DNA of 64,000 nt from Planctomycetota bacterium (GTDB lineage: Bacteria > Planctomycetota > UBA1135 > UBA2386): positions 6,400,001 through 6,464,000 of the forward strand of contig OZ245006.1 of the NCBI GenBank assembly GCA_965223545.1. The letters run 5' to 3'. Shown piece after piece: positions 2,206 to 37,859 of the stretch; position 1 is the first letter of the stretch; each line of letters opens with the position of its first letter. A program made the translations under genes and the position numbers. The notes beneath the pieces were generated by a model that worked only from the letters and a program-made list of their open reading frames with translations, was not told the DNA's origin and did no database searches.

Positions 2206-3210
2206 ATGAATGCCGCCGTCTTCGTCGACTTCGAGAACCTGTATCTGTCACTCAAGAGCCGCAACGACGGCACAGGTGTGCGCACGCGCGAGCTGAGCTT
2301 GCAGATCTTGGAGGGCATGTTGGCGCGCTTGCGCAAGCGCGGTCACCCGATGGTGATCGGCCGGTCGTACGCGGCGTTCGACACCTATCCCGGAGTCGAG
2401 GTCGCGCACGATCTTGCGCTGATGGGGCTGGACCCTCAGTACGTCTTGATCAGCCATTCGGGCAAGAACTCCGCCGACGTCCAGCTGGCGCTCGACGTGG
2501 CGCGCGTCGTGTTCCAGCGCCGAGACATCGAGCTCATCGTTATCGTCTCGGGGGATCGCGACTTCATCCCTCTCGCGCGCCAAGTGCTCGAAGAGGGGCG
2601 CGAGCTCCGCATCGTCGCGATTCCGGATACCACCAGCGGCGATTTGCGCGAACGCGTCGGTGAGCAGCGCTTCGTCAACGCCCTCGAGCTGATCCAGTCG
2701 CCGGTCAATCTGCTCAAGCCCGCCGAAGCCCCGGCCGCGGAGCGTCCGAGCCGCGAGCGCCGCCGGCGCGAAATCGACAGCGCCAACGGATCCGCCGTCG
2801 TCGATGCCGCGCCCAGCAACACGGACGAGGCGGCGCCACCCGACGACGAGCCGAGCCCGCCCAACGTCGTCGGCCATGTCCCCGTGACTTGGCAGACACA
2901 GCGCAGCGTCAGTCCGGAGGAGCACGAGGATCGGTTGCGCGAGTGCCTGGAGATGCTGGTCAAGGCGCGGCTACGGCACAACTCACCCGACATCTGGCTG
3001 TCGCCGTTCCTCAAGGGACCGATGAGCCAGCACTTCTCCAACCTCGTCCATCCCGAACGTCGAGCGTTGATCAACGAGCTGCGCAACCGCGGAGTGATCC
3101 AGGTCGAAGAGCGCGACAACGCCTACGCCGACCACCCCTACTCAGTGATCGTCATCGCCGAGGATCACCCGATGGCGCAGGCCGCGTGGGACCGCACAAC
3201 CCGCAAGTGA
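2206..3210 (+). CDS. NYN (LabA/DUF88, PIN-fold) domain protein with a C-terminal helical domain
   Basis: VFVDFEN, GKNSADVQL and IVSGDRDF motifs. ATG at 2206. Confidence 0.88.
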   Translation: MNAAVFVDFENLYLSLKSRNDGTGVRTRELSLQILEGMLARLRKRGHPMVIGRSYAAFDTYPGVEVAHDLALMGLDPQYVLISHSGKNSADVQLALDVARVVFQRRDIELIVIVSGDRDFIPLARQVLEEGRELRIVAIPDTTSGDLRERVGEQRFVNALELIQSPVNLLKPAEAPAAERPSRERRRREIDSANGSAVVDAAPSNTDEAAPPDDEPSPPNVVGHVPVTWQTQRSVSPEEHEDRLRECLEMLVKARLRHNSPDIWLSPFLKGPMSQHFSNLVHPERRALINELRNRGVIQVEERDNAYADHPYSVIVIAEDHPMAQAAWDRTTRK

Positions 3211-3311
3211 AAGTACGGATCCAGGCTCCCGTTCATCACTTGGTTCCACAACTCCCACCTTGGCGGCTGCCCGAGCCAAGTGATGAACGGGAGCCTGGAT
3301 CCGTACTTTCA
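3208..3311. repeat. Perfect 36-bp inverted repeat with a 32-nt loop (MITE-like element or bidirectional terminator)
   Basis: 3208-3243 TGAAAGTACGGATCCAGGCTCCCGTTCATCACTTGG is the exact reverse complement of 3276-3311. Confidence 0.9.
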
Positions 3312-21985: not shown

Positions 21986-22185
21986 CTCAGCGCGGCCGAG
22001 GCCGCAACCAACTCGGAGCATTCCGCGACCCGAGCGTCGGTCGCGGGTCCCGCGGTCGCCGGCGGCCGCCCTGAGCCCAGAGGCCAGTGTTGTCTTCGAG
22101 CCTCCGGGAGCTGCGTTGTCGAAGTTCCAGCGACATCGAGCCTTCCGAAAGGTTGTCGCCGCGCGAAGATTTGCGGACCCTGAGG
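21986..22185. repeat. Degenerate copy (200 bp) of the 195-bp palindromic repeat
   Basis: Starts CTCAGCGCGGCCGAGGCCGCAAC and shares CTGAGCC, GAGCCTCCGG and GTTGTCG blocks with 37271-37859. Confidence 0.75.
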
Positions 22186-22234
22186 CTCAGCGCGGCCGAG
22201 GCCGCAACGGTATGTGTGGTTCCATGATCTGCGA

Positions 22235-22565
22235 AGCTAGAGTTCTCCACACCCGTCGCGCCGTAGCGGTGTGGAAGACTCGCGCGATGGTGCAGCCGCA
22301 GGAGTCGTGTCGGGAGTCTGGTCATCGGCCGCAAGAGAGCTTAGGGTCCCCCGGCGTGCGACGGAGAGGTTTCGCGATCTGCCGCAATGGTGGCGCTTCG
22401 AGCGGCCCCTCATTTGGTTCTGCGACTCTCCTCCCGCGTGGGGGACCCGATTTAGGAGATTGGCGGCGTGAGAAATCACGGCCCCGAAACACGAACCGTT
22501 TTGGCGACTCGCCTCCTCAGGCGGACTGCGCGGGTAGGGAGAGTCCTCTCGTCGACACTCACTCG
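22235..22565 (+). ncRNA. Candidate bridge RNA (ends approximate)
   Basis: Nested stems including GGGTCCCCC 22344-22352 / GGGGGACCC 22440-22448. Loop segments match target left (22381-22388), target right (22413-22419), donor left (22452-22460) and donor right (22489-22499). Confidence 0.82.
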
Positions 22566-22582
22566 TTGAACATGGAGGGGAC

Positions 22583-24085
22583 ATGAATCGATTCGTTGGA
22601 TTGGATCTCGGCTTGAGGAGCAAGCACCGAGCCGTCGTTCTGGATGGTGCGAAGTCTCGGGGCAGACCGTTTTCAGTCGAGAACAGCCGTGAGGGTATTG
22701 ACCTTCTGCTGCGCCGTGCACAGGAAGGTGCCGAGGGTCCGGTGAGCTTCGTGATGGAACCAACGGGGTTGGCGTGGCTGCCCATCGCGGCGCACGTGAA
22801 CGCCGCAGGGTTCCAGATCTACGTGAGCAAACCACAGAAGCTGAGCGACCTGCGGAAGTTCTATAGCAAGCACACCAAAACCGACGTAGTAGACGCCGAG
22901 GCCGCTGCGCGTCTGCCGCAGATGGATCCAAAGGGCGTCCACCAGCTGCGTGTTCCAACTGCCGACGAGACGACGATCCGTCGACTCGTGAAGCGGCGTG
23001 AGCGGTTGGCGCGCGAGCTCAGCGACCACAAGCGTCGTGTGCACGCGATACTGGTACTGGCGAATCCCAGCCTCATGAAGGCCTTGGGGGCAGAGAAGTT
23101 CAGTGCCGCTAAGATGGGGTTTCTGCGGCGCTACGTCGATCCGGTGAAAGCGGTCGGCCTTGGGAAGAGTCGCTTGGAGCGCTTCTTGACGAAGCGATCC
23201 AAGGGAACGCATGACCCGTGCTTGGTCGACCGCGTGCTCGAGTCCTGCCGACAGGCCGCCGAGTACTACGCTGAGCTGCGAGCTGCGGGGCAGATGCCGT
23301 TCGACTACGAGGCCATCCAAGAGGATGTGGTGTACGAGCTGGATGAGATCGAGCGCAAGAACACGGACGTTCGCAAGCTCGACGCAAAGATCAAGAAGCT
23401 CTACCTGGGCGTCGATCCTGACCGAACACTCGAGCAACTGCGCGGCGTCGGTCCCACGATCGCTGCGGCCATCGAAGCCTTGGTAGGCGACATCGCGCGG
23501 TTCTCGAACGGCAAGAAGTTCGTGAGCTACTGCGGACTGTGTCCACGCCGGAAGCAGACGGGCATGAGCGACCCCTCGATGCCAATCACCAAAACCGGCC
23601 AACGAGTACTCAAGAAGTACCTCTACCTAGCAGCTGACGTCGCTCGCCAGTGGGATCCGGATTTCGCGGCGTACTACGCTCGCCGCTACGCCGCAGGTGA
23701 TCACCACAACCTCATCCTCATCGCATTGGCTGGCAAGATGGCGCGCCGCGTCTACGCCCTCCTGAAGCGTCGCGACAGCCAGCGCGCCGATGACAAGCCG
23801 GCGTCGACGCAAGTCCGCTACGTCCTGCGAGACGCCGACGGCAACGAGCTCACGAAGGTTGCCGCGCGCGCGCTCATCGCAGCCAAGTTCACGCGCAGCA
23901 TCGTCGCGCCACAGCGGCATGAGCGCGACCAACGGCGACAGGGACGAGTGGGGACTCCGACGACGAGGGACTTGAGTGGCCGCCCAATGGACGCCACAGG
24001 CCTGGCCGTGGAATCCCCACGTCAACCTCACCCGATCGGTGATCTCATGCAAGAACACTTCCCTGGTCTTGTGGAAGAGTCCTGA
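22583..24085 (+). CDS. IS110-family recombinase/transposase (DEDD RuvC-like plus Tnp20 domain), 500 aa
   Basis: GLD8, ME59PTG, KTD101VVD104A, LRGVGP and GLCPRRKQTG motifs. RBS GGAGGGG upstream. Confidence 0.95.
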   Translation: MNRFVGLDLGLRSKHRAVVLDGAKSRGRPFSVENSREGIDLLLRRAQEGAEGPVSFVMEPTGLAWLPIAAHVNAAGFQIYVSKPQKLSDLRKFYSKHTKTDVVDAEAAARLPQMDPKGVHQLRVPTADETTIRRLVKRRERLARELSDHKRRVHAILVLANPSLMKALGAEKFSAAKMGFLRRYVDPVKAVGLGKSRLERFLTKRSKGTHDPCLVDRVLESCRQAAEYYAELRAAGQMPFDYEAIQEDVVYELDEIERKNTDVRKLDAKIKKLYLGVDPDRTLEQLRGVGPTIAAAIEALVGDIARFSNGKKFVSYCGLCPRRKQTGMSDPSMPITKTGQRVLKKYLYLAADVARQWDPDFAAYYARRYAAGDHHNLILIALAGKMARRVYALLKRRDSQRADDKPASTQVRYVLRDADGNELTKVAARALIAAKFTRSIVAPQRHERDQRRQGRVGTPTTRDLSGRPMDATGLAVESPRQPHPIGDLMQEHFPGLVEES

Positions 24086-24127
24086 ACAAGCCGTGCACAC
24101 GCGATGTCGAGCCCCAGCGAAAACCCC

Positions 24128-24133
24128 TTGACA
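24128..24133 (+). promoter_or_regulatory. -35 hexamer in the IS right end (half of the circle-junction promoter)
   Basis: Perfect TTGACA. In the circle it lies 17 nt before TATGTG (22211-22216). Confidence 0.7.
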
Positions 24134-24325
24134 TGACTTAGGAGATATCAAACACGGATGCCGCTCTTGCCGGAGCGGCTTGGAAGGTCCGACCCATCCG
24201 CCGCCGCGCTGAGCCCGGAGGCACTGTCTCTCGGAGCCTCCGGCGCGGCGGCGACGTTGCCATGTCGGCGGCGTCGCCTCGAGAATGTTGTCGAAGCTCG
24301 ACGGTTCGAGGCGCCGGAGGCTCAC

Positions 24326-37270: not shown

Positions 37271-37859
37271 CTCAGCTCGGCCACGGCCGCAATGAACCTC
37301 GGATGCCGCTCTTGCCGGAGCAGCTTGGAAGGCCTGACCCATCCGCCGCCGGGCTGAGCCAGGAGGCACTGTCTCTCCGAGCCTCCGGCGCGGCCGCGCC
37401 GTCGCCATGGAGGCGGCGTCGCCTCGAGAATGTTGTCGCAGCTCGACGATTCGTGGCGCCGGAGGCTCAGCTCGGCCACGACCGCAACCAAGTTCGGATG
37501 CCGCTCTTGCCGGAGCAGCTTGGAACCTCCGACCCATCCGCCGCCGGGCTGAGCCAGGAGGCACTGTCTCTCCGAGCCTCCGGCGCCGCGGCGTCGTCGC
37601 CATGGCGGCGGGGTTGCCTCGAGATTGTTGTCGAAGTTCGACGATTCGTGGCGCTGGAGGCTCAGCTCGGCCACGACCGCAACCAAGTTCGGATGCCGCT
37701 CTTGCCGGAGCAGCTTGGAACCTCCGACCCATCCGCCGCCGGGCTGAGCCAGGAGGCACTGTCTCTCCGAGCCTCCGGCGCCGCGGCGTCGTCGCCATGG
37801 CGGCGGGGTTGCCTCGAGATTGTTGTCGAAGTTCGACGATTCGTGGCGCCGGAGGCTCA
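37271..37859. repeat. Three tandem 195-bp palindromic repeat units (REP/BIME-like)
   Basis: Units start at 37271, 37466 and 37661. Units 2 and 3 are near identical. Each holds two inverted-repeat pairs. Confidence 0.95.

Follow-up and report, generated by a model that had tools for sequence, protein, structure and literature searches.

An IS110-group element in a palindromic repeat, with target and donor dinucleotides that appear to differ at the join

We identified an IS110 element of 1,940 bp at positions 22209-24148 on the + strand of the window, by which we mean the whole stretch of 64,000 nucleotides that was analysed from a Planctomycetota bacterium. It is probably an active IS110-group, IS621-like bridge recombinase element, which joins its partners after position 9 and does not need them to match at positions 8 and 9. 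In the numbering of IS621, the sequences show that the target core (positions 8-9) is AC and the donor core AT, and that the join follows position 9. The position of the join is derived from filled versus empty sites, and the site, the non-identity and the guide covariation are likewise read from sequence.

The element, its copies and its target sites

The element was located within a two-unit array of a palindromic repeat, flanked by two convergent glycosyltransferase genes, and the empty first unit began directly after the stop codon of the upstream gene. The features of the locus are as follows.

21986..22185, + strand: empty unit of the genome-wide palindromic repeat, 200 bp, carrying an imperfect target, GCCGCAACCAAC, at 22001
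22186..22208, + strand: left half of the split repeat unit, 23 bp (halves summed against the period)
22192..22205, + strand: hairpin with a 5-bp stem and a 4-nt loop; the left target forms its 3' arm (DNA fold)
22200..22208, + strand: left target positions 1-7 and target core AC (positions 8-9, 22207-22208)
22209..24148, + strand: IS110 element, 1,940 bp (comparison of the copies in contig C1)
22209..22216, + strand: right donor GGTAT and a weak candidate -10 box (22211-22216; left end conserved in relatives)
24128..24133, + strand: TTGACA, predicted to be the -35 box of a promoter on the circle, with 15 nt between it and the end of the element
24140..24148, + strand: left donor AGGAGAT and donor core AT (24147-24148)
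24149..24320, + strand: right half of the split unit, 172 bp, beginning with the right target CAAA
37270..37859, + strand: empty three-unit array with a period of 195

The interrupted repeat unit, consisting of 23 bp at 22186-22208 and 172 bp at 24149-24320, contained no duplicated base, and the sum of the halves matched the 195-bp period of the empty array at 37 kb, which upheld the statement of an earlier note on this DNA that the halves sum to exactly 195 bp without a target duplication. The lack of a duplication is normal for the IS110 family (PMC11187229).

Contig C1 contained 11 copies of the element, which did not differ at any position corresponding to 22215-24140 and had the same ends. 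Both junctions were identical in all 11 copies, the left one being GCCGCAAC/GGTATG and the right one GGAGATAT/CAAA, where the slash marks the join; in the window they read GCAAC/GGT and GATAT/CAA, with the letters given in the earlier note. The left junction had a C and the right junction a T in 11 of 11 copies, and all 22 junctions followed the top strand. The repeat was present on both sides of 9 copies, on the right side only of the copy at C1:7273463 and on neither side of the copy at C1:5137697, such that 10 of the 11 copies touched the repeat family. The flanks diverged leftwards from position 1 and rightwards from position 14, and the right junctions ran into three different repeat bodies. 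Because the flanks differed just outside the recognised site, we consider the 11 copies to be separate insertions. All copies were examined for unrelated sites, a 2-nt core or a duplication, which the earlier note had named in advance as evidence against its claims, and no such pattern emerged.

Empty sites of the type GCCGCAACCAAA occurred 95 times in the genome, compared to 0.8 expected from the base composition, and in view of this excess and of the 11 identical junctions in 11 copies the pattern is not due to chance. The sequence GCCGCAAC/CAAA was read at these sites 95 times and the form with a T once, and the single T-form site was itself empty. Among 187 repeat heads matched under loose criteria, 164 had a C as their ninth base, 15 an A, 5 a G and 3 a T. 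Since the empty sites carried C over T by 95 to 1, the C at the left junction must be that of the target and the T at the right junction that of the element, and the join is therefore placed after position 9, the base that follows the A. The earlier note had taken this A for a single shared core base; it is indeed common to both partners at position 8, but it is, on the sequence of these sites, not the crossover point. The empty copies that the note had listed were also recovered, with GCCGCAACCAA at 22001 and ACCGCAACCAA at 37481 and 37676; at position 13, all three carried a C or G where the filled sites have an A.

In contigs without the element, CGGCCGCAAC-type ends were joined to 24149 in the runs X1 and X6. 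The right junction was found in low-depth contigs of X5 and X6 and the left junction in those of X6 and X7, which together represent three other samples. Neither a circle junction nor an empty allele specific for this locus was seen in the contigs of four runs. A candidate joint that skipped from 22208 to 24151, with one letter between, was traced to another repeat copy with one A fewer. A search of 40 related genomes for the element DNA gave nothing beyond short weak matches, and the recombinase protein was absent at E<=1e-40 among 400 genomes of the phylum.

The repeat family was palindromic and comprised 171 heads in 113 clusters, with units that were 85-90% alike. Altogether, 94 of the 95 perfect empty sites were situated in repeat heads, and 71 of the 95 lay between the frames of a crude map of ORFs, which took up 82% of the contig, so that the sites were mostly intergenic. 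The proposal that the repeat family is the preferred target was thus borne out by the copies, 9 of which had it on both sides. The related suggestion of a safe harbour describes the outcome, and the preference itself is explained by the guide match since 94 of the 95 perfect sites lie in repeats. It was also noted that at least 3 interchangeable bodies occur between a common head and tail, and that many heads contain small deletions right at the target site. Partial matches to the repeat, and only these, were found in 4 of 40 related genomes. A RAYT-REP link was rejected, as the nearest of 14 PF01797 matches was 6.8 kb from any repeat head, and the repeat is REP-like without being assigned as a RAYT-REP system. 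Partial matches to PF01797 also marked an element that recurred at 12 places in C1 (e.g. 1355010, 1632801 and 2260328), unlinked to the repeats.

The hairpin at the target is suggestive of a role in site choice. The sole insertion outside the repeats had such a hairpin arm by inspection, its best fold being another hairpin, and the related elements L020 and L021 (54% protein identity) had an identical target, GCCGCAAC/CAAA, next to a comparable hairpin in otherwise unrelated surroundings. The insertion site at C1:7273463 had no hairpin, and a hairpin arm was present at 28 of 863 non-repeat GCCGCAAC sites.

Two repeat heads, at C1:537461 (-) and C1:611328 (+), read GCCGCAAC-GGTAT-CAAA in different repeat bodies. 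The GGTAT fits a 5-bp footprint of the left end, left behind by loss of the element via the TAT common to both ends, and it destroys the target site. A second IS110-family element, which was IS1111-like with a short left and a long right end, was identified at C1:614437, 5087205, 6849574 and 7067772. It used a different site within the repeat family, its two junctions had an AG in common in the conventional manner, and one of its copies was about 85 bp from a copy of the 1,940-bp element. Elsewhere in the window, an inverted repeat of 39 bp with 97% complementarity and 26 nt between its arms was located at 3208-3311.

Recombinase, predicted bridge RNA and guides

The coding and RNA features of the element are listed here.

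22340..22530, + strand: predicted two-stem-loop bridge RNA region (alignment of 18 sequences)
22381..22387, + strand: left target guide GCCGCAA, for target positions 2-8 (alignment)
22413..22420, + strand: right target guide TTTG, followed by G (position 9), T (position 8) and handshake TC
22454..22460, + strand: left donor guide AGGAGAT, for donor positions 1-7
22495..22501, + strand: right donor guide ACC, followed by G (position 9), T (position 8) and handshake TT
22583..24085, + strand: IS110 recombinase of 500 aa with PF01548 and PF02371 (profile matches, residue alignment)

The element extended 374 bp on the 5' side of the ORF and 63 bp on the 3' side, which is the layout of the IS110 group and not of IS1111, and the RNA guides were located in the long left end (22381-22501), as in the IS110 group. 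No pair of element ends was present among the 25 longest inverted repeats listed. The recombinase matched PF01548 and PF02371 with scores of 86.7 and 75.6 bits, respectively, above the cut-offs, and NF033542 with a score of 208.7 (cut-off 140). The DEDD residues were D8/E59/D101/D104, and the only sequence matches in PDB were ISCro4 and IS621. The conserved catalytic serine was absent, Thr326 (window 23558-23560) being aligned with Ser241 of IS621. Among 103 homologs, this position was part of SG in 51 and TG in 39, while 4 had another S and the motif was not found in 9; many of the Thr relatives had no Ser nearby. The replacement of Ser by Thr is a conservative change that does not lower the family assignment, and it is a difference from IS621; a literature search on threonine at the IS110 catalytic serine found nothing. 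About 100 residues extended beyond the region matched by NF033542 (window 23770-24085), and the relatives were also 480-600 aa long.

Alignment of the left ends of 18 relatives yielded two stem-loops, in which 22 of the 38 predicted pairs had changed on both sides. The fold of the single sequence was weak (z -1.8), and a search against Rfam gave a chance match only. The alignment suggests two internal loops with four guides that covary with the target and the donor, as in IS621-type RNAs. Within the clade described below, all 4 pairs of the right target guide were formed in 15 of 17 elements and 3 of the 4 in the other 2. In both right guides, a G was placed opposite position 9, which makes a Watson-Crick pair with the C of the target and a wobble pair with the T of the donor. 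The handshake over positions 6-9 of this element had 5 Watson-Crick pairs before the exchange and 4 after; across the 17 elements the count rose in 10, stayed level in 6 and fell only in this one. The sequence GAGAAAT near 22471 was considered as a left donor guide and rejected, being a hairpin loop that varies in the relatives.

Of the two circle junctions named in the earlier note, GATACGG and GATATGG, the latter is predicted. Such a circle would combine a perfect -35 box, at a spacing of 17 nt, with a -10 box that matches 3 of 6 consensus bases, and the segment at 22209-22216 may thereby serve in a promoter; we would guess that the donor T gives this promoter an extended -10 TG. When the linear element was scanned for promoters, no junction promoter was detected.

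Related elements and the nature of the exchange

We used a homolog set of 88 loci, 79 of which were scanned for ends. The close group consisted of 28 loci with 41-56% identity; 5 without a findable left end, 5 without a findable right end and 2 duplicates were dropped, leaving 16 relatives and, with this element, a set of 17 with both ends, for which the guide positions were taken from alignment columns. Support for the clade, in a tree with 20 clade rows, was 100/97 and the root was placed at the midpoint. The 17 elements are related by descent and thus not independent. Empty sites were available for 2 of the 17 (this element and L037/L038), the others being placed via the guide register, and some of the short metagenome contigs of the relatives may be chimeric.

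The junction dinucleotides were identical in 3 of the 17 elements, had one base in common in 6 and none in 8, which supports the proposal that a core mismatch, here AC against AT, is tolerated. The sequences of the relatives join GC, GG, CC or TG targets to AT. Both right guides paired with the target base at position 9, that is, the base of the left junction, in 17 of 17 elements, whereas with the right-junction base at this position they paired in 5, wobbled in 8 and clashed in 4. At position 8 both guides had a U, which paired with the donor A in all 17 and with the target in only 7, and the handshake of the target loop paired with donor position 6 in 15 and with donor position 7 in 14 of the 17. 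Counted by hand, the base at position 9 changed at least 5 times on the tree, and every such change was common to the two guides and the left junction. The donor base at position 9 was the same as that of the target in 5 of the 17 (L028, L029, L032, L034 and L041), and the near-identical L041 and L044 end in C and T, respectively.

At L037/L038, the element is inserted in a gene of the HNH type, whose left part is 99% identical to an intact protein, P0105. P0105 has an Ala across the junction. Of 113 homologs, 13 lacked the motif, and the other 100 all had this Ala as well, which fixes the target core of L038 as GC, against AT in the donor. In the outgroup, the same CT (9 loci) or GT (6 loci) was present at both junctions in 15 of 15 loci with both ends, the left end having been chosen between two candidates by a group motif in three of them; three outgroup loci had no left end and L046 stayed unresolved. 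These sequences suggest that T was the original base at position 9 of the donor, and that the target has since been freed from the need to match it. No residue that explains the loss of the core was found in a comparison of ingroup and outgroup: the A61/G63 motif was the same in both, and the equivalent of N84 was Lys in the ingroup and also in the GT outgroup.

It was also noted that the elements at L001, L024, L034, L036, L039-L043 and L045 (also L031) were inserted one base before an ATG or GTG that opens a frame. The insertions were located 5 nt after a TAnnnT box in 10 of the 13 loci with enough flank, with one more at +1, a sequence pattern that points to promoters of leaderless genes. 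The right end supplies the downstream gene with AGGAGA, a motif resembling a ribosome site, and transcripts from the host promoter would extend into the element. A literature search on IS900 and start codons found nothing. The relative L001 was present as a single copy in its genome.

In IS621, the top strands are cut after position 9 and the bottom strands between positions 9* and 10* (PMC11208158). In the reading that we prefer for our element, a two-loop bridge RNA from the left end would recognise a site of 12-13 nt, GCCGCAAC/CAAA, which adjoins the base of a short hairpin. The excised circle, in which the AT end would abut GGTAT to give the GATATGG junction, and the target would be connected through their top strands at the point given by the filled and empty sites, directly behind position 9, with a chemistry taken from IS621, which is joined there too. 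The right guides hold the partners of target position 9 and donor position 8, as their covariation shows, leaving the donor T on a G-T wobble, and the stretch between the offset top and bottom cuts, positions 6-9 in IS621, would contain one more mismatch. This could be resolved to the top strand by host repair or replication; for overlap mismatches in IS621, host repair was suggested by the authors as a possibility (PMC11208158). Donor position 9 would be the last base of the element, mostly the ancestral T, with changes in the target base and the guides, and the right donor guide would track the target base, which it meets after the exchange and at the left junction during excision. The staggered cutting of the bottom strand is assumed by analogy with IS621, with which the likeness is 27-35% in matched stretches only, and the mapping of the cut at 9*/10* to top positions 6/5 is our reading of the IS621 numbering, which agrees with "positions 6-9". 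Counting against this reading, the handshake falls from 5 to 4 pairs here, whereas that of IS621 favours insertion (PMC13626964). Furthermore, the clade must differ from IS621 in some way, because recombination in IS621 is blocked by non-matching cores (10.64898/2026.04.29.721476).

Alternatively, the partners could be joined at the same point by a blunt cut at 9/10, or by an exchange of the top strand only that is resolved by replication, in neither case with a mismatched overlap. Such an exchange fits the junctions equally well, as all 22 follow the top strand and 8 of the 17 elements have no identity at positions 8-9, and the excision of IS621 in vitro is mostly single-stranded (10.64898/2026.08.31.748434). 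We nevertheless hold it to be rather unlikely, since the bottom cut is 4 nt away in the IS621 structures (PMC11208158), and since the agreement of donor and target at position 9 in 5 of the 17 and the C versus T of L041 and L044 fit an occasional conversion of the overlap, although plain mutation would also account for the latter pair. A broader version, in which the whole clade is coreless, with any target dinucleotide joined to a fixed donor end, one guide base per loop, a top-strand-only or blunt exchange, a threonine nucleophile and a handshake instead of homology at positions 6-9, is put forward tentatively, as a possibility that we would not bet on.

The remaining explanations are hard to reconcile with the junctions. 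If the A were a one-base core, the element would read CGGT...GATA, its circle GATACGG, and its targets would have been the rare sites with a T. In favour of this, ACCGT of the right donor guide pairs perfectly with ACGGT, and a T follows the left target guide, but that T belongs to the conserved scaffold, the T form of the target is outnumbered by 95 to 1 and empty (3 of 187 heads have T at position 9), the right target guide fits the left-junction and not the right-junction base in 17 of 17, L038 would encode Val/Ile instead of the observed Ala, and 8 of the 17 elements share neither base, such that a common A is not needed; this makes an A core very improbable. Still harder to credit is the idea that gene conversion or duplication copied a single insertion along with the adjoining repeat, which would deprive the 11 junctions of their independence. 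The high copy number of the repeat and the similarity of its units (85-90%) would favour such a process, and it is refuted for most copies by the different flanks, the three repeat bodies and the copy outside any repeat. We give the least credence to a one-base C core with duplication, as suggested by the C at both junctions (22208 and 24149). The required target, GCCGCAACAAA, occurs once in the genome and outside the repeats, the halves with both C's already sum to the 195-bp period, and the first base of the right target varies in the relatives (C, T or G) and pairs with the guide.

Comparison with known systems

A shared core is assumed in PMC13626964, 10.1101/2025.05.14.653916 and PMC13604230, and bridge-editing designs require matching CT or GT cores (10.1101/2025.05.14.653916, 10.64898/2026.04.29.721476). 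The core dinucleotide has been named as a limit to targeting in a recent review (PMC13604230), a limit that would be removed by a clade that joins AC, GC, GG, CC and TG targets to an AT donor, if this is shown in the laboratory. The natural clade would also offer ready scaffolds for bridge editing, and its mismatched cores constitute a strand marker with which the resolution of the bottom strand becomes testable. Mining pipelines assign or force a shared core (PMC11208160, 10.64898/2026.10.21.760802), so that coreless elements may be mis-bounded or dropped. That such elements turn up is known, because one pipeline mentions elements without a predicted core, for which a core is fitted or which are discarded (10.64898/2026.10.21.760802). 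Our literature search, the coverage of which excluded most subscription journals, found no paper on a natural mismatch between donor and target cores, and 10.64898/2026.08.14.744561 contributed nothing on the point.

Like IS621 (PMC11208160, PMC11208158, PMC13626964) and ISCro4/IS622 (10.1101/2025.05.14.653916), our element combines PF01548 and PF02371 with a long left end and a predicted two-loop RNA with four guides. It also resembles IS621 and ISCro4 in the handshake bases, the predicted split promoter, the join after position 9, the repeat targets and the lack of a duplication. In contrast to IS621, which has a CT core in both partners, 326 aa and Ser241, it has differing cores, 500 aa and a Thr. 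The CT core of IS621 is invariant and always pairs with the guides (PMC13626964), whereas the guides are chimeric over positions 8-9 here. The outgroup IS110 loci (27-35% identity) share with our element the TTGAC/TTAGG layout of the right end, the EPTG motif and the RNA scaffold, and differ from it by a CT or GT core in both partners and a canonical TATACT/TATATT -10 box.

The targeting of REP sequences by IS110 elements is already known (PMC11208160, PMC12288879). ISPpu10 of Pseudomonas putida (10.64898/2026.03.19.712850) likewise has a REP-type target with a 5-bp stem and a 4-nt loop, the 3' arm of which is the left target; it differs in having CT at both ends, and the need for the hairpin, which is only suggested here, was tested there. 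ISPpu9 (PMC12288879) is also an IS110 element with multiple copies in REP/BIME repeats, and its target is likewise associated with a palindrome, but it has an invariant AG at both ends. The ISEc21/seekRNA elements (PMC11187229) have in common with ours an upstream non-coding region, abutted ends and no duplication. In this company the targeting of a repeat is ordinary, and what is new compared to IS621 is the core mismatch in most of the clade.
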